DNA from: Spirochaetota bacterium
GTDB taxonomy: Bacteria; Spirochaetota; UBA4802; UBA5550
NCBI GenBank assembly: GCA_016933025.1
Contig: JAFGBT010000006.1
Coordinates: 155,078-219,077 of the forward strand
DNA: 64,000 nucleotides
Direction of reading: 5' to 3'
Below are positions 3,049 through 37,905 of this stretch, piece by piece. Position numbers and translations under genes: made by a program. Below the pieces are notes generated by a model. The model saw only the letters and a list, made by a program, of their open reading frames with translations, did no database searches and had not been told where the DNA came from. Each line of letters begins with the position of its first letter. Position 1 is the first letter of the stretch.

Positions 3049-3825
3049 ATGTCAACATGCAACTATACGGTTGATGAGCAGGGCGTCGCCTTCATGATCA
3101 TCGACAATCCGCCGATGAACGCCCTGAGCACCCCCGTGATCAACGATATCCGCGAATGCGTTCAGAAGGCGCTCGGCGACAGCGCCGTGCGCGTCATAAT
3201 ATTCACCGGCGCGGGGCGGGCCTTCATCGCCGGAGCCGACATCGGCGAATTCAAGGACCTGAACACGCAGAGGGCCGGGAGCGACTGGCTGAAAAACGGC
3301 CAGGACCTTCTCAACCTCGTGGAAAACGCCGACAAGCCGTTCATCGCCGCGATCAACGGGTTCGCGCTTGGCGGCGGCACGGAGATGGCGCTCGCCTGCC
3401 ACATCCGCCTCGCCGATGAAACGGCCCAGATGGGCCTTCCGGAAATCAAGCTCGGGATAATTCCCGGCTTCGGCGGCACCCAGCGCTCCCCCCGACTCTT
3501 CGGCACGGGACGGGCATACGAGCTCATCCTCTCGGGCAATTTCATCAGCGGGAAGCTGGCCGCCGAATACGGACTGGTCAACCGCTCGACCCCGAAAGGC
3601 ACCGTGGTCGCCGAGGCCAAAAAGCTTGCGGATGCCATCGCGCTCCGCGGCCGCCCCGCTGTCAGGACCGCCATGGACGTCATCCGCAGGGGTATCACGA
3701 TGAATCTCGCCGACGCGCTTACAATGGAGCGCGACGCATTCGGGGCGCTCTGTGAGACAGAAAACAAGCGTGAGGGCGTGGCCGCGTTTCTCGCCAAGCG
3801 GGACCCGGTTCCGAAGGACCTGTAG
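3049..3825 (+). CDS. enoyl-CoA hydratase/isomerase (crotonase family)
   Basis: Crotonase motifs FIAGADI, AAINGFALGGGTEMALACHIRLA; AAGGAG RBS. Confidence 0.85.
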   Translation: MSTCNYTVDEQGVAFMIIDNPPMNALSTPVINDIRECVQKALGDSAVRVIIFTGAGRAFIAGADIGEFKDLNTQRAGSDWLKNGQDLLNLVENADKPFIAAINGFALGGGTEMALACHIRLADETAQMGLPEIKLGIIPGFGGTQRSPRLFGTGRAYELILSGNFISGKLAAEYGLVNRSTPKGTVVAEAKKLADAIALRGRPAVRTAMDVIRRGITMNLADALTMERDAFGALCETENKREGVAAFLAKRDPVPKDL

Positions 3826-5800: not shown

Positions 5801-6035
5801 CCGATTGGAAATATCCGCTCATCCCCGCCTGACAACGGCCGCTTATTAGTGGAAACAGATATCGATGTGCAACCGGAAACGCCAACGGTGATTAAAGTAA
5901 AGCAGCTCAATACATCCTGTCAAGTTATAATTTGAACAGGAAGCGCTCTCTGGTGAAGAGGGGAGCGGGACAAAAAAATCTACACCTGCACCTCGCCGCG
6001 CCGCCCGGCATGCTTCGGCCGTGCCGACACTGATC

Positions 6036-6641
6036 TCAGACCTGTGTCATAAGGTACATTATGCGACTGGCCCTGTCAGCCTTGACTTCCGACATCTTCT
6101 GCATGAGGTATGGTGTGATGCTTGTCCTGCCTGCCTCCAGCGCATTCGCGTCAATCTGCCTGAGCACATCGATGATCAGCGTATCTTCCCAGTTCAACAT
6201 TATGCTTACCGCATTTGCCGGCGGCATGTTCACCATCTTGTCGGCGAGCACCTTCACGTTCTGGCGGTAGCCCGAATAACGAGTCTTCTCCTGGTCTAAT
6301 TTCTTTTTCTCGAGGTCCAGCCCCTTGCGCACCTCTTCCATCTTTTCTTTCTGAGCGTCGAGATCCTTTTCTCTTTCAGCGATCAGAGCCTCACGCTTGT
6401 CCAGGCTCTCAACCCGCTCCGCAAACTTCTGTTTCTCCTTTTCGAACTCCTCGCGCTCAACAAGCGACGGCTCGTCGCCACCAGCCTCGGTCACGAGCTC
6501 CGGCTCGCCCCTGAAGCGGTTTACATACGATGAGATGTCGAAGAGACCGATGTAATCGAGCCAGAAAAGGCCGAACCCGGATATAAAAAATATCAGCAGA
6601 ATCAGGTAAAGAATCTTTGCCCTGTTTGATATGTTTCTCAT
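6036..6641 (-). CDS. YlxF/FlbB/MotE-like flagellar-operon protein (TM anchor, coiled coil, MgtE_N-like C-terminal domain)
   Basis: Hydrophobic N-terminus, long charged coiled coil, C-terminal LIIDVLRQIDANALEAGRTSITPYLMQKMSE; position after fliJ. Start chosen at the internal Met with GGTGGAGG RBS (the ORF track extends to 6683). Confidence 0.5.
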   Translation of the reverse strand: MRNISNRAKILYLILLIFFISGFGLFWLDYIGLFDISSYVNRFRGEPELVTEAGGDEPSLVEREEFEKEKQKFAERVESLDKREALIAEREKDLDAQKEKMEEVRKGLDLEKKKLDQEKTRYSGYRQNVKVLADKMVNMPPANAVSIMLNWEDTLIIDVLRQIDANALEAGRTSITPYLMQKMSEVKADRASRIMYLMTQV

Positions 6642-6690
6642 GCACAACCTCCACCGCGGCGCGTCACCGGGCCGCCCCGGCACATAATTC

Positions 6691-7743: not shown

Positions 7744-7872
7744 CTCACAAGCCCCCTAAATCCCCCGAAGGGGGACCGCCCTCACCCCCTTCCCCTCTCC
7801 CACAGGGAGAGGGGAGAAGGTATCATAGACATGTTACTAAAGCCCCCCTCTGGGGGGTTTGGGGGGCATCGC
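7744..7872. repeat. G/C-tract modular hairpin repeat, copy R2, inserted in the fliI-fliJ spacer
   Basis: CCCCCGAAGGGGGAC, CCCCTCTCCCACAGGGAGAGGGG, AAAGCCCCCCTCTGGGGGGTTTGGGGGGC; shares over 60 nt with R1. Confidence 0.6.
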
Positions 7873-7904: not shown

Positions 7905-9305
7905 TCATCGTACTATCCGCGCGAATGCCGGCGTCCTGGAGACGATATCCGGCCTCGCTGACGGCCTCTTTTCTGAAAACATGTCGATCAGCCTCTTCAC
8001 GATAGATGCGTATTCGTCCTGCTCGTATATTCCCTGCCGCAAAAAAGCATTCATCGTATCCATCATTTCAAGTGCCCTGTCGACGGCCGGTACCGAACCC
8101 CGCGCGTACGCGCCCAGGCTGATCTCGTCCTCGTGCTCGGTGTAGGCCGCGAGGAGTTCGCGGAACTTGTTCGCCGCCTCCATGTGCTCAGGGGTAACGA
8201 CGTCTTTCATGCAGCGGGATATGGAGGCGAGCACATCGACCGCCGGGTAATGCCCCTTATGCGCCAGGCGGCGCTCCAGAACGATGTGCCCGTCAAGTAT
8301 GCTTCGGGCGTGATCGGCGATCGGCTCATTCATGTCGTCGGCCTCTACCAGGACCGCGTAAAATCCGGTGATGCTGCCGCCATCGGCGATGGTTCCCGCC
8401 CGCTCCATCAGCTTCGCCATGAGCGAAAAGGTTGATGGCGGATAACCGCGCATCGAGGATGGCTCGCCGGCGGCGATGCCCACCTCCCGCTGGGCCATGG
8501 CAAACCGGGTGATCGAGTCCATCAATAAATTCACGTGGAGTCCTTTATCGCGAAAAAACTCCGCGATTGCGTGGGCCAGGTAGGCCCCGCGTATCCGCAT
8601 CATGGCCGGCTGGTTGGACGTCGCCACGACTACGACCGTGTTCTTCAGGCCCTCCGGCCCCAGCTCCTTCTCGACGAAATCTTTAACCTCGCGGCCGCGC
8701 TCTCCGATGAGCGCCACCACATTCACGTCCGCGTCGGTAAACCGGGATATCATGGCTATGAGCGTAGATTTGCCGACGCCTGAACCGGAGAATATACCTA
8801 TACGCTGTCCCCGTCCCACCGTGTTGAGCCCGTCGATGGCCCTGATCCCGACCGAGAGGGGCCTGTCGATGACCACGCGCTCGAGCGGATTTATCGGCTC
8901 GCTGGTGACCGGATACCGCTCCTTCGTAAAGATGCTGCCCCGGCCGTCAAGCGGTTCGCCCACGCCGGAAATGACCCTGCCGAGGAGCTCCTCCCCAACC
9001 GGGACCATGAGCGCCGTACCGGCAGCGACGACGTCGGCGCCCGGGACGATCCCCTTCATGTCACCTATCGGCATGAGAACGACCCTGTTCTTGTTGAAGC
9101 CGACGACCTCGGCGTGGAGGTATCCGCCCCGGTCGAGCCGTATCTTGCAGAGCTCTCCGTATTCGACATCGGGACCGATCGACTCGATGGTGAGGCCCAC
9201 CACACGCTCGACCCGGCCGGTATACTTGATGGTCTCCAGCTCCTCAATGATACCCCTGTATTTCGAGAGGATATCGACCTTTTCATGTGGCAGGATTTTT
9301 ATCAT
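7905..9305 (-). CDS. fliI: flagellum-specific ATP synthase FliI
   Basis: Walker A GSGVGKST; T3SS ATPase conservation throughout; 466 aa. Confidence 0.95.
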   Translation of the reverse strand: MIKILPHEKVDILSKYRGIIEELETIKYTGRVERVVGLTIESIGPDVEYGELCKIRLDRGGYLHAEVVGFNKNRVVLMPIGDMKGIVPGADVVAAGTALMVPVGEELLGRVISGVGEPLDGRGSIFTKERYPVTSEPINPLERVVIDRPLSVGIRAIDGLNTVGRGQRIGIFSGSGVGKSTLIAMISRFTDADVNVVALIGERGREVKDFVEKELGPEGLKNTVVVVATSNQPAMMRIRGAYLAHAIAEFFRDKGLHVNLLMDSITRFAMAQREVGIAAGEPSSMRGYPPSTFSLMAKLMERAGTIADGGSITGFYAVLVEADDMNEPIADHARSILDGHIVLERRLAHKGHYPAVDVLASISRCMKDVVTPEHMEAANKFRELLAAYTEHEDEISLGAYARGSVPAVDRALEMMDTMNAFLRQGIYEQDEYASIVKRLIDMFSEKRPSARPDIVSRTPAFARIVR

Positions 9306-9335: not shown

Positions 9336-9385
9336 GGCGCCCTCTGTTAGGGGCGGGTTTAAACCCGCCCCTAACAGAGGGCGCC
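9336..9385. repeat. 50-bp perfect palindrome in the fliH-fliI spacer (GGCGCCCTCTGTTAGGGGCGGG TTTAAA CCCGCCCCTAACAGAGGGCGCC)
   Basis: Read directly; 22-bp arms with a TTTAAA centre; lies 7 nt after the fliH stop and 30 nt before the fliI ATG. Confidence 0.7.
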
Positions 9386-9392
9386 GTATCGA

Positions 9393-10280
9393 TTATATCG
9401 TCGTCGTGCTCCTGATCGCCTCTTCTATGGCGTCAAGCTGCGTTGATATCTTCGCGTCGATGGCGCCGACGTCGGTCTCGATAATGCAGCCTCCCCGCTC
9501 GACCCGGGAGTCCTCGTAGATGTTGACCTTCTTCAGCGATTCCATCATCTTTATCAGCTCGTCCTTGTGCGCGGTGGTCATGTCGAGGTCAGCGAAGTTC
9601 ACGCGGATGTCGATCCGGTCGCGGTCTTTGACGCGCTTGATCGCCTCTTTGATGTTGTTGATGACAACCTCGCGGCGCTCCACGATCTCGTCCTTGATGA
9701 CCTTGCGCGCGATCATAAGGATCATCTCGGTCATCAGCTTCTCCGACGACTTGATGATGTCGTCGCGGATGTCCACGGCCGTGGAGACGATGGTGCCGAG
9801 CCGGTCGATGAGCCGCATGACCTCGGCCTGCCCTTCCTTGTATCCCTCTTCCCGACCGGCGTCGTAGCCCTTCTTGTACGCCTCGTGCTCGATCTCGGAG
9901 ACCTTGAGCTCGGCCTCCTTGATCATCTTCTCGGCCTCGAACTTGCCACGCTCAATCTCCCGCTCCGACTCGACCTTCAGGCGCTCGATCTCCTGGGTAA
10001 TCTGCTCCTTGGAGGTCTGGAGCTCGCGGAAAGCGGCCTGCCGCCCCTCCTCTTCTATCTGCTTGGCCTGCGTGCGGGCCTGCTCGAGCATGTCCTTGAC
10101 TTCTTCTTCTGTCTCGCGCCGGTACCTCTCGAGCTCCGCCTCCATCTCCTCGATGGACGGCCCCTGGTAGACGTCGATAGGATTCCCCTCGTCGTCGACC
10201 TCGAATTCCTTGAATTCCTCGCTTTCTATGAGGTTCTTCTGATATTTTGCCGGAAGCTCGATCTGCTTCGGGATGTTCAT
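9393..10280 (-). CDS. fliH: flagellar assembly protein FliH
   Basis: Charged coiled-coil N-half; FliH/YscL-like C-terminal domain (IRVNFADLDM...GGCIIETDVGAIDAKI). Start placed at the internal ATG 10278-10280, because the 10370 start would overlap fliG by 59 nt; weak RBS. Confidence 0.75.
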   Translation of the reverse strand: MNIPKQIELPAKYQKNLIESEEFKEFEVDDEGNPIDVYQGPSIEEMEAELERYRRETEEEVKDMLEQARTQAKQIEEEGRQAAFRELQTSKEQITQEIERLKVESEREIERGKFEAEKMIKEAELKVSEIEHEAYKKGYDAGREEGYKEGQAEVMRLIDRLGTIVSTAVDIRDDIIKSSEKLMTEMILMIARKVIKDEIVERREVVINNIKEAIKRVKDRDRIDIRVNFADLDMTTAHKDELIKMMESLKKVNIYEDSRVERGGCIIETDVGAIDAKISTQLDAIEEAIRSTTTI

Positions 10281-10311
10281 CTGGCGAATCTCGCCCGGTT
10301 TAAAAACTAAC

Positions 10312-11328
10312 CTAGACAACCAGTTCCTCCTCGCCGGCCCGTGCCACGATAATGTCGCCGGATTCCTCAAGTTTTCTAATTATGTTAACGATTTTCTGCT
10401 GCGATTCCTCAACGTCCCTCAGGCGGATTGGGCCCATGAAGTCCATGTCCTCGCGGAGGAGCGCGGAGGCGCGCTTCGACATGTTCCGGTAGATCTTTTC
10501 CTGCACTTCGGCGTCCACGCCTTTGAGAGCCTTGGCAAGATCCTGCGTGTCGACCTCGCGGAGGACCTTCTGTATCGAACGGTCGTCAAGCAGCACGATG
10601 TCCTCGAACACGAACATCCGCTTCTTGATCTCCTCCGCCAGCTCGGGATCCTCCTCTTCCAGCGCCTCTATGATGATCTTCTCGGTTCCGCGGTCGACGT
10701 TGTTCAGCACCTCTACGATGGCGTCGATGCCGCCGGCGGATGTAAAGTCCTCGCTCGCCAGTGTGGAGAGCTTGCGCTCGAGCACGCGTTCGACCTCGCG
10801 GAGCACGTCAGGCGAGGTCCGGTCCATCTGGGCGATCCGCTTGGCCACGTCCGCCTGTATCTGGTGCGGAAGGCCTGAAAGGATGAGCGCCGATTTCTGC
10901 GGGTCCAGATAGGCAAGTATCAGCGCAATGGTCTGCGGGTGCTCGCCCTGTATGAAGTTCAGAAGATGGCTCGGGTCGGTACGGCGTATGAAGTCAAAGG
11001 GCCTCACCTGCAGCGACGAGGTGAGACGGTTCACGATGTCAATGGCCTTCTGGGTGCCGAGGGCGCGCTCGAGTACGTCGCGGGCATAATCGATGCCGCC
11101 GTTCTGGATGAATTCCTGGGCCATCATCATCTCCTGGAACTCCTGTAAAACCTTGTCGCGGTCTTCCGGCTCGATCCGGTCCAGGCGGGCGATTTCGAAG
11201 GTCAGCTGCTCGATTTCATCTTCCCGGAGGTGCTTGAAAATCTCGGATGAGACCTCCGAACCGAGGGAAACGAGGAAAATGGCCGCTTTCTGGCGCCCCG
11301 ATAATTGCGATTTTTTCGATTGAAGCAT
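10312..11328 (-). CDS. fliG: flagellar motor switch protein FliG
   Basis: 338 aa; N-terminal SGRQKAAIFLVSLGSEVSSEIFKHL; FliG middle and C-terminal domains. Confidence 0.9.
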   Translation of the reverse strand: MLQSKKSQLSGRQKAAIFLVSLGSEVSSEIFKHLREDEIEQLTFEIARLDRIEPEDRDKVLQEFQEMMMAQEFIQNGGIDYARDVLERALGTQKAIDIVNRLTSSLQVRPFDFIRRTDPSHLLNFIQGEHPQTIALILAYLDPQKSALILSGLPHQIQADVAKRIAQMDRTSPDVLREVERVLERKLSTLASEDFTSAGGIDAIVEVLNNVDRGTEKIIIEALEEEDPELAEEIKKRMFVFEDIVLLDDRSIQKVLREVDTQDLAKALKGVDAEVQEKIYRNMSKRASALLREDMDFMGPIRLRDVEESQQKIVNIIRKLEESGDIIVARAGEEELVV

Positions 11329-11417: not shown

Positions 11418-11480
11418 ACCAAAAATAGCCCCCCTCCGGCCTGCGGCCACCTCCCCCCATTAATGGGGGGAGGACGGGAA
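11418..11480. repeat. G/C-tract hairpin element in the fliF-fliG spacer (CCTCCCCCC ATTAAT GGGGGGAGG palindrome plus an AGCCCCCCTCCGG module)
   Basis: Read directly; related to the modular repeat family. Confidence 0.5.
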
Positions 11481-13186: not shown

Positions 13187-13348
13187 ATAGTCCTCCCGAG
13201 CCCGCCCTGAACAGGGCCCCTGCCAAAATAAATCTCACCAGAAGCAAAGACAATGCGACATAATACAGCTTATCAGGACAAAAAAAAATGTCAATTAATT
13301 TTTCTAAAAATAATAATAAAAATATACATGAAAATTAATTGGATAACA

Positions 13349-13392
13349 GGCGGGCTGTAGGCGAGGTCACGTGACCTCGCCTACAGCCCGCC
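13349..13392 (-). terminator. 44-bp perfect palindrome (GGCGGGCTGTAGGCGAGGTCAC GTGACCTCGCCTACAGCCCGCC) followed on the minus strand by a U-rich tract; candidate fliE terminator; member of the GAGGTCACRTGACCTC palindrome family
   Basis: 8 nt downstream of the fliE stop; an AT-rich tract follows in the minus direction. Confidence 0.55.
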
Positions 13393-13399
13393 TCGCCTA

Positions 13400-14988: not shown

Positions 14989-15032
14989 GCGCCCCGGGAG
15001 GCGGGGTCTTGTGACCCCGCCTCCCGGGGCGC
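14989..15032 (+). terminator. 44-bp perfect palindrome (GCGCCCCGGGAGGCGGGGTC TTGT GACCCCGCCTCCCGGGGCGC) followed by TCATCTTTTTTAT on the + strand
   Basis: Read directly; terminator-like geometry on the + strand although the nearest upstream + strand gene is about 9 kb away. Confidence 0.5.
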
Positions 15033-15217: not shown

Positions 15218-15934
15218 ATGGTGAAAAATTTTCTATCAGCATGCATTGCTTTACTGTCCATTGTACTACTGTCTGCATCGGCCATGGCGATCGGGATTGG
15301 AGGGTATTTCGATATCGGCGCCGGGAGCACAACATGGAGCGGAGACCTCAGCGGAGGAACAACCGACCTGGTTCCCACCGGCGGACTGATCCTCGACACC
15401 GCCGCGGCCAAAAACAAGATATTCAATTACCGCCTTAAATTCGGGGGCGGCAAGATGCTGAGCGGCGACCTTAAACTCGACAAGGTCGGCATGGTACATA
15501 CCTTCGGCCTTTCCCCGTCCAACATGCGAGGCGACGAGGCCAGGTTCTTTTTCGGACCACGTATCGGCCTCCACTATGTCGGCGGGAAATACATGTCATT
15601 GGATGCGCCGGACCCGCTCATGTTCCTGTTCCTGGGACCGTACGCGTGGCTCTTGTCCGGAGACAAAATGGTCCATTTCGACATGTTCCGTTTCGATCTC
15701 GGGCTTGTCCTTCTCGGTTTCAATTTCAACCTCGGGGAGCACGCGACGCTCACCTTTGAGTTCGGTTTCGATTACGGCATTATGCTTGGCGGCGACGAGG
15801 CCTCAATCACGGCAAACGGAATAGAGGGATTCGCCACCCTGGGATTCATGTATCGCATCAACGACCGCTTCGGCGCGGTACAGAAGAACATCGAACGTCC
15901 GGATGAAAATAAAATGAGCATCAACGTTGATTAG
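15218..15934 (+). CDS. putative outer-membrane beta-barrel protein (signal peptide, Gly/aromatic-rich)
   Basis: Signal peptide MVKNFLSACIALLSIVLLSASAMA; alternating amphipathic beta-strand pattern; GGGAGG RBS. The ORF-track start at 15083 was trimmed. Confidence 0.55.
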   Translation: MVKNFLSACIALLSIVLLSASAMAIGIGGYFDIGAGSTTWSGDLSGGTTDLVPTGGLILDTAAAKNKIFNYRLKFGGGKMLSGDLKLDKVGMVHTFGLSPSNMRGDEARFFFGPRIGLHYVGGKYMSLDAPDPLMFLFLGPYAWLLSGDKMVHFDMFRFDLGLVLLGFNFNLGEHATLTFEFGFDYGIMLGGDEASITANGIEGFATLGFMYRINDRFGAVQKNIERPDENKMSINVD

Positions 15935-15961: not shown

Positions 15962-15997
15962 GGGATCGCTCAAACCTATGCGAGGTCACGTGACGTC
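15962..15997. repeat. imperfect palindrome AAACCTATGCGAGGTCAC GTGACGTCGTATGGGTTT between convergent genes; GAGGTCACGTGAC core family
   Basis: 15 of 18 arm positions pair; shares its core with the 13349 and 18124 palindromes. Confidence 0.45.
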
Positions 15998-16038
15998 GTA
16001 TGGGTTTGCGCGACCCCACCCTCGCACCCGAATCCATT

Positions 16039-17559: not shown

Positions 17560-18099
17560 ATGAAATATAAACTATTGAAAAACCCGATCTCATTTATTGC
17601 ATCGTCCCTTCTGCTTCTATGTGGCTGCGGTGAAAAGCCGTCTCTTAAAACAGTGACCGGCGTGGACATCAAGCGCTTCATGGGCGACTGGTACGTGATC
17701 GCCAACATTCCCACGTTCCTTGAAAAAGGGGCGCACAACGCGGTCGAGTCGTACTCGCTTGACGCGGACGGAACGATCGCAACGACCTTCACCTTCCGCA
17801 AGGGCGGCTTCGACGGCCCGGTAAAGACCTATCACCCGCGGGGATTCATCCGCGACCCCAAAACAAACGCCGTCTGGGACATGCAGTTTTTGTGGCCGCT
17901 CAGGTCGGAGTATCTCATTATCTATCTCAGCAGGGATTATTCGGTCACGGTCATCGGCCGCAGCAAGCTCGACTATGTCTGGATCATGGCGCGCAGACCC
18001 GCAATCAGCGAAGCCGACTACCGGTCGCTTCTCAAGCTCCTGGCGGACGTCGGGTATGACGTGGACAGAGTGCGGAAGGTGCCGCAGAAATGGGATTGA
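17560..18099 (+). CDS. blc: bacterial lipocalin Blc (outer-membrane lipoprotein)
   Basis: Lipobox LLLCGC; lipocalin SCR1 motif GDWYVIA; about 179 aa. Confidence 0.85.
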   Translation: MKYKLLKNPISFIASSLLLLCGCGEKPSLKTVTGVDIKRFMGDWYVIANIPTFLEKGAHNAVESYSLDADGTIATTFTFRKGGFDGPVKTYHPRGFIRDPKTNAVWDMQFLWPLRSEYLIIYLSRDYSVTVIGRSKLDYVWIMARRPAISEADYRSLLKLLADVGYDVDRVRKVPQKWD

Positions 18100-18123: not shown

Positions 18124-18163
18124 GCGCATGTGAGCGAGGTCACATGACCTCGCTCACATGCGC
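18124..18163 (+). terminator. 40-bp perfect palindrome GCGCATGTGAGCGAGGTCA CATGACCTCGCTCACATGCGC, 25 nt after the blc stop, followed by a T8 run
   Basis: Read directly; shares the GCGAGGTCACRTGACCTCGC core with the 13349 palindrome. Confidence 0.55.
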
Positions 18164-18292: not shown

Positions 18293-19468
18293 ATGATCGG
18301 CCAATCGCCCGCGGCCGCGGAGGAAGCCGGGAATCCGCTGCACAATATAAGGATCTTCGTCGTGGACGATGAGCCGGTTAACCTCCAGGTCCTCAGGAAT
18401 AACCTCTTCCTGGCCGGGATACAGGTCGAAACAGCGTCCGGCGCATTCGAGGCGCTGGAAAAACTTGAAACTGGATACCTCCCCGACATCATCCTTCTCG
18501 ATATTATGATGCCACGTATGAACGGGTACGAGTTATGCAAGATAATACGGAAGAGCCACAGCATCAGCGAAATGCCGATCATTTTCCTCACCGCGAAGGA
18601 CCGCACGTCGGACCTGATTGAGGGACTCTCGAGCGGTGCCAACGATTACATATCCAAACCCTTTTCGCCTCACGAGCTCATCGCCCGGGTCAACACGCAG
18701 ATCGCGCTGAAAAAGGCTGTCAAGGACAGGGAAAAGCTTGTCTCCATCAGGAACGAGCTCAGAATCGCGAGGGAAATACAGCAGGCCATCATACCCAAGC
18801 ACTACCCGCTCATGTCGGGACTTGACATTCAGGGCGAATATATTCCAATGGAGGCAGTCGGCGGTGATTTTTTTGATTTCCATCTTTTTGACGGGAAGAG
18901 GATCGGCATTGTAATCGCAGACGTATCGGGCCACGGCATTCCGGCAGCAATCGTGGCGGCGATGGTCAAGGTGGCCTTCTCGCTTTCACTCGGCGACGCA
19001 CACCGGCCGGACAGGGTACTGGAGACAATACAGCAAACCCTGATAGACAAGCTGGGCAACAATTTCCTGACCGCGGGCTACGTCTATATTGACGTTGAAG
19101 CCGGGACGATCAGCAGCTCCCGCGCCGGTCACCTGCCAGTGCTGGTCTTCAGGAAAAGCGAGAAAAAATTCTACGAGCTCTACCCCGCCGGCGGCATGAT
19201 CAGCAGGCTGGGGGAAAACCTTTTTGAGACGACTGACATGAAACTCGCTGAAGGTGACCGTATTATACTCTTTACGGACGGGATAGTCGAGATCACCGAC
19301 CGTTCGGACGTCATGTTCGAAACAGAACGTCTGATGAAGTTCATAGAGCGCAATTCAGAAAGAACCGCAAAAGAACTCTGCCGGACACTCGTGAAAGAAC
19401 TGACGATATGGGCCGGCAAGGATACATTCAATGACGATCTCACCCTGCTGATCATAGACATAACATGA
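18293..19468 (+). CDS. response regulator receiver fused to PP2C (SpoIIE/RsbU-type) phosphatase
   Basis: Receiver residues VVDDE...DIILLDIMMP...LTAK; PP2C motifs GGDFFDF, IADVSGHG, ILFTDG. Start placed at the internal ATG 18293 because the 18158 start lies inside the palindrome; start uncertain. Confidence 0.8.
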   Translation: MIGQSPAAAEEAGNPLHNIRIFVVDDEPVNLQVLRNNLFLAGIQVETASGAFEALEKLETGYLPDIILLDIMMPRMNGYELCKIIRKSHSISEMPIIFLTAKDRTSDLIEGLSSGANDYISKPFSPHELIARVNTQIALKKAVKDREKLVSIRNELRIAREIQQAIIPKHYPLMSGLDIQGEYIPMEAVGGDFFDFHLFDGKRIGIVIADVSGHGIPAAIVAAMVKVAFSLSLGDAHRPDRVLETIQQTLIDKLGNNFLTAGYVYIDVEAGTISSSRAGHLPVLVFRKSEKKFYELYPAGGMISRLGENLFETTDMKLAEGDRIILFTDGIVEITDRSDVMFETERLMKFIERNSERTAKELCRTLVKELTIWAGKDTFNDDLTLLIIDIT

Positions 19469-24764: not shown

Positions 24765-24854
24765 AAACCAAATACCTCGTGTATAAAATCTTTAACGTAA
24801 TATCGCATATCCGCCTGAAGGCGCGGTTGCGTTCCCGCGCCTTCAGGCGGAAGC

Positions 24855-25710: not shown

Positions 25711-25750
25711 CCCCCCCTCTCACCGTGGGAGAGGGGGTTGGGGGGGTGAA
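25711..25750. repeat. short G/C-tract repeat copy (CCCCCCCTCTCACCGTGGGAGAGGGGGTTGGGGGGGTG)
   Basis: Matches modules of R2 and R7. Confidence 0.4.
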
Positions 25751-33175: not shown

Positions 33176-33272
33176 CTCACCCCCTTCCCCCTCTCCTCAA
33201 AGGAGAGGGGGAGAAGAAGAATATCGCATTCTTCTCCTCCCCTTCTTCCTGTGGGAGAAGGGGCCGGGGGAT
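33176..33272. repeat. G/C-tract modular repeat copy R6 (CCCTCTCCT CAAA GGAGAGGG and CCCCTTCTTCC TGTG GGAGAAGGGG hairpins)
   Basis: Read directly; same module style as R2 and R7. Confidence 0.5.
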
Positions 33273-37014: not shown

Positions 37015-37054
37015 GCGGCGCCTCCCTGTTTTTTGGGAGACAGGGAGGCGCCGC
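37015..37054 (-). terminator. stem-loop GCGGCGCCTCCCTG(N12)CAGGGAGGCGCCGC downstream of the crotonase gene
   Basis: 14-bp perfect stem; weak U-tract. Confidence 0.4.
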
Positions 37055-37865: not shown

Positions 37866-37905
37866 ACCCTCACCCCTGCCCCTCTCCCACGGGGAGAGGG
37901 TACAC
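37866..37905. repeat. G/C-tract repeat copy R7 (CCCTCACCCCTGCCCCTCTCCCACGGGGAGAGGG)
   Basis: Near-identical to the middle module of R2. Confidence 0.4.

Follow-up and report, generated by a model that had tools for sequence, protein, structure and literature searches.

What are the long palindromes that stand among the flagellar genes of an uncultured spirochaete, and which kind of constraint keeps their centres alike while their arms differ? The question is raised by a 64,000-nt stretch (positions 155,078 to 219,077 of contig JAFGBT010000006.1, Spirochaetota bacterium assembly GCA_016933025.1; hereafter, the window), for which a first-pass annotation made from the sequence alone had listed three palindromes with a common core and had read them either as a family of terminators with a protein-recognized apex or as binding sites, built of AGGTCA half-sites, for a dimeric regulator. 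The answer argued for here is that these palindromes are probably hairpins of the repetitive extragenic palindrome (REP) type, recognized as single-stranded DNA (ssDNA) by a Y1 HUH nuclease of the REP-associated tyrosine transposase (RAYT)/TnpAREP type, i.e., by a domesticated IS200-like transposase.

Three clear copies (H1, H2 and H3) and two diverged ones (H4 and H5) were found in the window (Table 1), so that the family first taken to consist of three palindromes is real, although two of its members, at 14989-15032 and 24810-24851, had been missed. The 20-nt core at the centre of the three clear copies reads GCGAGGTCAC[G/A]TGAC[C/G]TCG[C/T], and the outer arms, as had been claimed, differ from copy to copy and remain self-complementary; the copies are thus hairpins of one family, conserved at the apex and co-varying in the arms. 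Some of the details needed amending: the perfect palindrome given as 13349-13392 (GGCGGGCTGTAGGCGAGGTCACGTGACCTCGCCTACAGCCCGCC) reaches one base further on each side and measures 46 bp; H3 lies exactly where it had been placed, its two-nucleotide centre, however, makes that centre CACATG instead of CACGTG and the palindrome not strictly perfect; and H2, rightly called imperfect, had been positioned 10 nt too low (15962-15997). Judged by its sequence, the arrangement of H1, with a tetranucleotide foot on either side of the core, appears to be that of a “double-foot” REP. H4, found as a match with three mismatches, has a changed apex (AGGCGGGGTCttgtGACCCCGCCT) and, relative to the core, an A to G in one arm that is compensated by a T to C in the other, and fits an AGGCG-N14-CGCCT pattern, while the GCGCGG stem variant of H5 recurs in two loci of other genomes, in one of which (L140; the other is L013) it stands beside a RAYT gene.

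When the core 16-mer was matched with up to three mismatches, the window gave 8 strand-matches against 0.70 expected, a number that none of 100 shuffles reached. The predicted hairpin energies range from -36 to -54 kcal/mol as RNA (z -3.7 to -10.8) and from -18.5 to -33.1 kcal/mol as DNA (z -4.7 to -9.8 or, at the widest, -4.7 to -11.6), with no shuffle folding as stably in 10 of the 11 folds and 1 of 200 doing so for H2 as minus-strand RNA. These palindromes are a real family, far beyond chance, and, being GC-rich with arms of 17-23 bp that fold into stable single-strand hairpins, they have the structure expected of REPs.

The core is not confined to this genome. A scan of 185,579 species genomes for exact GAGGTCACRTGACCTC returned at least 119 loci with at least 120 exact 16-mer matches, and the figures given here refer to the matches listed. 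Approximately three quarters of them are isolated chance occurrences, mostly in high-GC coding DNA; GC...GC flanks, expected about 0.5 times, stand on 31 of the 120, and nearly all of these 31 extend as perfect palindromes of 26-48 bp, whose outer arms are again self-complementary and different from site to site. The hosts, by record title, are Spirochaetota, Leptospirales, Bacteroidota, Ignavibacteria, Calditrichota, Anaerolineae, Patescibacteria, Peribacteria, Altimarinota and a gammaproteobacterial metagenome-assembled genome (MAG), i.e., about ten lineages, with the GC content of the family loci ranging from 0.28 to 0.64. Crude calling of open reading frames (ORFs) places 23 of the 31 relatives in intergenic DNA; in 12 cases the ORFs on the two sides converge, and the gap separating them is often taken up entirely. 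The core of H1 is identical to that of at least some 30 sites in other phyla, and to that of the copies which RAYT-like genes contain and read as ARSRDLA. Neither Rfam, which had nothing at or above the gathering score and only sub-threshold matches to generic hairpin (miRNA) models, nor a literature search for the exact core sequence, which brought up only eukaryotic E-box and primer matches, yielded anything relevant.

Single 8-kb loci were also seen to contain symmetric variants of the core (GCGCGGTCACGTGACCGCGC, GAGATCACGTGATCTC and GAGGTTACGTAACCTC), in which the CACGTG centre is kept and both arms are changed, and these, together with the perfectly paired H4, indicate that it is pairing that is selected, not a fixed operator sequence. 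This bears directly on the idea of a double-stranded site for a dimeric DNA-binding protein, be it a regulator with AGGTCA half-sites or a ParB-type protein with a parS-like site, an idea which could draw on the perfect dyad through CACGTG, on copies that are few per genome and clustered within a few kb, on a conservation independent of genome GC and on the central TCACGTGA that the core shares with canonical parS (the 16-bp TGTTNCACGTGAAACA). Symmetric compensatory variants coexisting in single loci nevertheless argue against such a site, as do perfect arms that exceed a plausible protein footprint and differ between copies, the embedding of the site in frame in a transposase gene, and the composition of the neighbourhood: among the 25 top Pfam families of 101 neighbouring ORFs, no regulator or ParB family is recurrent, and Y1_Tnp is the one recurrent family linked to the core. 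No match to TGTTNCACGTGAAACA with up to three mismatches was found in the window, the core sharing nothing but the central TCACGTGA with it, and the parS idea was rejected on this ground and on that of the compensatory variants; the same variants and the diverged apex of H4 speak against the dimeric regulator proposed at first, and a dimer-bound site of either kind is hardly credible.

The notion of a protein recognizing the conserved part, in turn, survives as the best explanation, with a RAYT/TnpAREP acting on folded ssDNA as the candidate. In a Pfam scan of the 101 ORFs flanking 27 family loci, Y1_Tnp (IS200-like) was the only recurrent mobile-element family, and in three loci, one from Bacteroidetes (L029) and two from Peribacteria (L057 and L107), the core-containing ORF is itself a Y1_Tnp protein. 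These three proteins align over their whole length and read the core as an invariant ARSRDLA (GCG AGG TCA CGT GAC CTC GCC), located past the HuH part and ahead of the C-terminal PKFKWQxSFHDHIIR...Y, i.e., between the HuH and the WQ/Tyr motifs, whereas a Spirochaetes MAG (L058) has a truncated C-terminal RAYT fragment that starts at a variant core. A hidden Markov model (HMM) of this RAYT-like family matches these 4 of the 27 family loci and none of the approximately 92 chance loci (Fisher p = 0.002). The first-pass annotation had held that a core occurring at random positions, inside genes included, would speak against the family; it does lie inside genes of other genomes, but in frame, and notably in the transposase gene, and thus its presence there is a mark of the family and no refutation of the finding.

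A database search gathered 96 relatives of these proteins, named, where they are named at all, “transposase” or “REP element-mobilizing transposase RayT”, mostly 180-225 aa long and with the consensus ..ydHfHlL.., PKFkWQKSFHDHiIR and, as the Tyr motif, nY[TI]xYN[FYW]xKH (N at +4 in 85 of the 96, P absent). SRD[LRVP]A is present in the HuH-Tyr linker of 21 of them; others have repeated linker peptides of a different kind (e.g., EGDIGQCRL, EGDVGQRRL or EGANSNSRL), and in L139, the sole such locus for which the DNA was read, the sequence behind EGDIGQYRL is GAAGGCGACATTGGCCAATATCGCCTTC, a different palindrome on the same GAAGGCGA...TCGCCTTC base. The locus L140 has a REPtron-like layout: one palindrome copy (TAGGCGCGGTCACGTGACCGCGCCTA, 9963-9988) precedes the RAYT start by 13 nt, and another within the gene (GCGAGGTCGCGCGACCTCGC, 10296-10319) has the apex TCGCGCGA instead of TCACGTGA and still encodes ARSRDLA, because in that frame each third codon position faces another third position across the stem. 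The core-associated proteins share only 35-53% identity, and the identical 20-24-nt core spans lineages of 28-64% GC.

In the Bacteroidetes locus L029, tandem half-core arrays are seen at 5970-6650 on either side of the stretch in which the RAYT gene encodes the HuH part, with left halves (GCAGGCGAGGTCAT...) upstream and a 27-nt right-half unit (CACGTGACCTCGCCTGCAATGATATAT, read SRDLACNDI) repeated within the gene; full cores stand at 6105 and 6526. Arrays such as these, and a core readable as two back-to-back inverted repeats of 10-12 nt, could suit another origin of the palindromes, namely remnants or targets of some other mobile element (abutted terminal inverted repeats, or a hot-spot palindrome of the IS110/IS3 type), to which the RAYT association would be secondary; insertion sequences that insert into REPs are known, e.g., IS1397, ISPpu9/10 and IS621 (IS110 family). 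The 25 top Pfam families of the 101 neighbouring ORFs, however, include no other recurrent transposase family, and in RAYT genes the core is always at the same place, past the HuH motif and ahead of WQ. Among 2.9 million viral contigs, only 11 core matches were found, none of them of the family type with palindromic flanks, and these are therefore chance matches, the element not being phage-borne in that collection. An origin from another mobile element is accordingly held to be very unlikely.

A more serious alternative is that of intrinsic terminators, perhaps bidirectional, or mRNA-stabilizing hairpins evolved by the host, with a stable apex selected and possibly bound by an RNA-binding protein, and with no link to a transposase. 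The positions of the three copies first listed, which are at gene ends as had been claimed, suit it well: H1 begins 6 nt past the fliE stop and 160 nt upstream of the fliF start (both genes assigned by Pfam), H2 lies between the convergent genes 15284-15934 (+) and 16039-16794/16851 (-), and H3 is found 25 nt past the stop of a lipocalin (blc-like) gene, upstream of a response-regulator/SpoIIE gene with a called start at 18293. (The convergent pair had been labelled OMP/plsC, of which the acyltransferase holds for the minus-strand gene, whereas “OMP” is only putative, 15284-15934 having no Pfam hit.) Many of the relatives filling gaps between convergent ORFs, the A- and T-runs around the stem in three of them (L116, L051 and L092), the very high predicted RNA stability, and the better folding of H2 as plus-strand RNA, which is due to G-U pairs, also count in its favour.

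Terminators would, however, have to account for much that does not fit. H1 and H2 have no T-run, a T8 run starts 12 nt downstream of H3, and the scan for stems followed by a T-run flagged nothing but 14989-15032, i.e., H4, which has no upstream gene on that strand, whereas a Rho-independent terminator, a GC-rich stem with a 3-8-nt loop and a U-tract immediately behind it, should follow a gene of its own strand. H4 sits in the divergent promoter region between flgB (-) and the gene 15284-15934 (+), and hence not at a gene 3′ end. H1 and a further palindrome at 9336-9385 are located within the flagellar operon, whose minus-strand order by Pfam is flgB-flgC-fliE-[H1]-fliF-fliG-fliH-[9336-9385]-fliI. 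All 87 stem bp of H1, H3, H4 and 9336-9385 are Watson-Crick pairs with no G-T pair among them, which favours a constraint at the DNA level, or a templated origin, over selection on RNA only. Neither the identity of 20-24 nt over about ten lineages of 28-64% GC nor the in-frame copies in RAYT, PrmC-like and DHH genes can be explained by terminators. The terminator role proposed at first is therefore not established for these hairpins, and the host-evolved explanation as a whole seems rather unlikely. H5 stands in a 90-nt gap separating two minus-strand genes, so that all five window copies are intergenic, as REPs are expected to be; the gene context of H3 and H4 derives in part from gene calls on an identical contig (L131).

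Table 1. Palindromes and hairpins of the window, with predicted folding energies in kcal/mol
Feature	Positions	Strand	Sequence or layout	Description	Predicted folding
H1	13348..13393	.	outer arm AGGCGGGCT / foot GTAG / 20-nt core GCGAGGTCACGTGACCTCGC / foot CTAC / outer arm AGCCCGCCT	perfect 46-bp palindrome, 23-nt arms, no spacer	RNA -51.5 (z -9.9); DNA -29.5 (z -9.7)
H1 core	13361..13380	.	GCGAGGTCACGTGACCTCGC	20 nt	
H2	15972..16007	.	AAACCTATGCGAGGTCACGTGACGTCGTATGGGTTT; parts AAACCTAT-GCGAGGTCACGTGACGTCG-TATGGGTTT	imperfect copy; looser palindrome around it, 15962-16017, 84% complementary	RNA -41.5 (+ strand), -36.0 (- strand)
H3	18124..18163	.	GCGCAT-GTGA-GCGAGGTCACATGACCTCGC-TCAC-ATGCGC	19-bp arms, 2-nt centre (CA)	RNA -45.4; DNA -24.9
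H4	14989..15032	.	GCGCCCCGGG-AGGCGGGGTC-ttgt-GACCCCGCCT-CCCGGGGCGC	diverged; 20-bp perfect arms, 4-nt loop	-53.9
H5	24810..24851	.	TCCGCCT-GAAG-GCGCGG-ttgcgttc-CCGCGC-CTTC-AGGCGGA	diverged; 17-bp perfect arms, 8-nt loop	
Sister palindrome	9336-9385		GGCGCCCTCTGTTAGGGGCGGGTTT / AAACCCGCCCCTAACAGAGGGCGCC	50-bp perfect palindrome	RNA -57
Second hairpin family	7791-7815, 25713-25737, 33186-33212, 37880-37900		(T)CCCC(C)TCTCC-loop-GGAGAGGGG(A)	four copies	
Perfect hairpin	11450-11473		CCTCCCCCCATTAATGGGGGGAGG	between fliG and fliF	
Perfect hairpin	37015-37054		GCGGCGCCTCCCTGT...ACAGGGAGGCGCCGC	15-bp arms, 10-nt loop	

Where do these hairpins belong among the REP systems already described? Subclass 2.4 of TnpAREP, which equals Bertels group 4, comprises proteins with a median length of about 194 aa and the motifs NH[IFV]H (HuH), WQ (W motif) and YIxNNP (Tyr), goes with “canonical long” and “double-foot” REPs that have 5′ GT[AG]G and 3′ C[TC]AC feet, and has a variable, repeat-containing linker, with REPs that sit in frame within tnpAREP (Quentin, Siguier, Chandler, Fichant 2018, BMC Genomics 19:475, PMC6006769). 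The family described here resembles it in its long GC-rich hairpin with, in H1, GTAG/CTAC feet, in the palindrome placed in frame, often as tandem copies, in the variable linker of a Y1 transposase gene, in associated proteins of about 190-200 aa with (N/D)HFH and WQ motifs, and in a patchy phyletic distribution. The 96 proteins agree with the subclass in their HuH motif, WQ motif and length, and in an insertion made of REP sequence that keeps the frame between the HuH and Tyr motifs; their Tyr motif differs from YIxNNP, which is why the family is called 2.4-like and not a member. Differences are also found in the foot, mostly G-N-A-G (GCAG or GAAG) and not GT[AG]G, in a 20-24-nt core identical across lineages with outer arms that vary within one genome, and in the hosts, which for subclass 2.4 are mainly Cyanobacteria and Bacteroidetes and here are Spirochaetota, bacteria of the candidate phyla radiation (Patescibacteria, Peribacteria), Bacteroidota, Calditrichota, Ignavibacteria and others; nor has the cognate gene been found here, in the window plus about 4 kb.

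As for REPs in general, Di Nocera et al. (2013, PMC3733652) describe them chiefly from the DNA behind ORFs, in gaps between genes that run in one direction or converge, and in some cases from within ORFs. The core copies in PrmC-like and DHH ORFs of Peribacteria MAGs are reminiscent of intragenic insertions of REPs (PMC3733652) or of Rickettsia palindromic elements, whereas all copies of the window are intergenic. Rho-independent terminators are similar in being GC-rich stem-loops past a stop codon, with T-runs near H3 and H4, and dissimilar in that stems of 19-23 bp are far longer than theirs, a U-tract is missing from H1 and H2, conservation of the sequence extends across phyla, and some copies lie within an operon or in a promoter region.

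The classical systems of E. coli and Pseudomonas, i.e., REPs and REP doublets forming hairpins (REPINs) with their RAYTs, are reportedly those treated by Nunvar in 2010, Bertels and Rainey in 2011, Ton-Hoang in 2012 and Messing in 2012. They, too, have extragenic hairpins, mostly 3′ of genes and between convergent genes, a single-copy domesticated Y1 HUH transposase, a recognized unit made of a hairpin plus a foot tetranucleotide, and proposed roles in mRNA stabilization or termination. Classical REPs, however, are bulged, imperfect palindromes conserved as whole units and present in tens to hundreds, often as inverted pairs (REPINs, bacterial interspersed mosaic elements), while the palindromes described here are perfect through the centre, apparently few, and provided with locus-specific arms. 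All in all, the palindromes of the window are most likely, judging from sequence likeness, a further example of a kind of element already described, closest to the REP/RAYT pairs of subclass 2.4.

Several observations weigh against counting these hairpins as REPs of a RAYT. The RAYT-like gene was not found with the family HMM in the 64-kb window or its extension of about 4 kb, which consists of short Logan contigs of SRR13394437 identical to the window and contains no further core copies. The number of copies seems low compared with the tens to hundreds of classical REPs: the clear copies of the window are all inside 13.3-24.9 kb, and a Spirochaetota contig of 1.07 Mb has 2 exact matches among those listed. 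The feet are mostly non-canonical, GT[AG]G being found in the window only on H1 (GTAG...CTAC; H3 has GTGA...TCAC and H2 has CTAT), and the relatives listed having GCAG (8), GAAG (7), GTAG (3) and GAAA (3). Only the apex is conserved among copies, with perfect outer arms that differ, unlike in classical REP families, and the Tyr motif of the associated proteins, Y-[TI]-x-Y-N-[FYW]-x-K-H, is not that of subclass 2.4.

If the REP/RAYT explanation holds nonetheless, which we consider probable, the source genome would itself be expected to encode such a RAYT, and the following course of events might be envisaged by analogy with E. coli TnpAREP and IS608 TnpA. The recognition of a hairpin and the cleavage and rejoining of ssDNA by these two enzymes are established biochemistry. 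Palindrome DNA that becomes single-stranded, e.g., in the lagging-strand template, would fold into a hairpin; the RAYT would bind the hairpin together with the tetranucleotide at its foot (GTAG...CTAC in H1 and, for most relatives, G-N-A-G) and would cut and rejoin the ssDNA at the foot, so that the element is copied or moved; copies would then build up in intergenic DNA, mostly just past genes. Binding or cleavage of the window hairpins by a RAYT is thus presumed from the enzymes mentioned. Where copies are transcribed, very stable RNA hairpins would form, and these may act at the RNA level, shielding the upstream mRNA from 3′ exonucleases or partly stopping transcription, as could be the case at fliE-fliF. 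E. coli REPs have been reported to stabilize upstream mRNA or to attenuate read-through, and it is possible, by analogy, that the hairpins between fliE and fliF (H1) and between fliH and fliI (9336-9385) do either of the two.

The origin of the arms is a separate matter. The locus-specific perfect arms may have arisen through insertion of the element at the dyad of another palindrome, or else through copying with the hairpin as template. Removing the 24-nt core from H1 leaves AGGCGGGCTGT / ACAGCCCGCCT, which has AGGCG...CGCCT ends around a 12-nt centre as compared with 14 in full members, and this suggests that H1 might be a REP nested at the dyad of another REP. Removal of the core from H3, H4 and the relatives leaves loop-less palindromes with no resemblance to the family ends, and hairpin-templated extension is the alternative source of the arms. 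Insertion of the core into the loops of ordinary terminators was also considered and is weakened by the perfect loop-less palindromes that core removal leaves, and by the lack of a T-run in most copies; ordinary terminators are rarely perfect loop-less palindromes. In three relatives of the spirochaete (L132, L133 and L135, with 74-82% aa identity in the acyltransferase), the hairpins are absent at the orthologous lipocalin and acyltransferase ends, and these genomes are too distant for an intergenic alignment that would reveal an empty site or pre-existing arms.

A more far-reaching proposal, which we advance as a speculation with the odds against it, is that the REP “species” AGGCGAGGTCACGTGACCTCGCCT is kept letter-identical in about ten lineages since the RAYT gene holds an in-frame master copy in which wobble positions pair with wobble positions, whereas the dispersed copies grow their perfect, locus-specific arms either through insertion at the dyads of other palindromes or through synthesis on the hairpin as template (snap-back or template-switch). 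If this were true, gene and substrate would be inherited and constrained together, and the element would be a self-extending palindrome, not a repeat of fixed length.

Other features were seen along the way, both in the window and in the loci collected. The sister palindrome at 9336-9385 takes up the greater part of the 87 nt that separate the fliH stop from the fliI start within the flagellar operon; the apex is unlike the core, its CTGT(T)AGG foot resembles that of H1, and no peptide matching it was found among the 96 RAYT proteins. Between H1 and the fliF start, there is a very AT-rich tract of 160 nt (13187-13347) with long A and T runs, in surroundings of 52-60% GC, which may be an internal promoter or an UP-like region for fliF. 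The second hairpin family of Table 1 is intergenic in all four copies, each just past a minus-strand gene. One of the spirochaete relatives mentioned above (L132, 82% aa identity) has, at 3069-3098 and 17697-17732, palindromes of a different family, whose apex is CCGCAAAC[G/A]TTTGCGG and whose perfect arms vary, suggesting that related genomes carry different REP-like families. Two ORFs of Peribacteria MAGs contain the core in frame, a PrmC-like methyltransferase ORF (L012, 3557-4426, minus strand), where it is read TRSRDLAY, and a DHH-family ORF (L046, 2344-3180, minus strand), where it is read RRGHVTSP, these being the two stop-free frames of the palindrome. A Patescibacteria MAG contig of 17,320 nt (L123, JBAYNP010000006.1) has a perfect inverted repeat around the core that continues for 652 nt, to the start of the fetched stretch, and is centred at 8660, exactly mid-contig, so that the whole contig is probably one inverted repeat; a chimera that arose at the hairpin during assembly or amplification is the probable cause, a hairpin-ended replicon being less likely. 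The idea of hairpin telomeres to which this contig had given rise was set aside, as the copies of the window sit in unique chromosomal flanks. In Microbacterium sp. PRF11 (L022, 1970-2116), four CACGTG-centred 20-mers, e.g., TCGAGGTCACGTGACCTGGC, occur within approximately 130 nt, probably an iteron- or operator-like array unrelated to the REP family.

What these palindromes would mean, if they are indeed REP-type hairpins of a RAYT, is first of all that a striking set of palindromes around the flagellar genes of an uncultured spirochaete could be explained without a new regulator, as part of the REP/RAYT world, which would thereby be extended to Spirochaetota and candidate-phyla bacteria, with a single REP core that very distant lineages have in common without change. 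For annotation, it would follow that hairpins of this sort are to be scored neither as operators nor as simple terminators. With their perfect palindromes, arms that differ from locus to locus, in-frame copies in transposase and other genes, and copies within an operon (fliE-fliF and fliH-fliI), they would also make clean test cases for the spread of REPs and for the effects of REPs on neighbouring transcripts.

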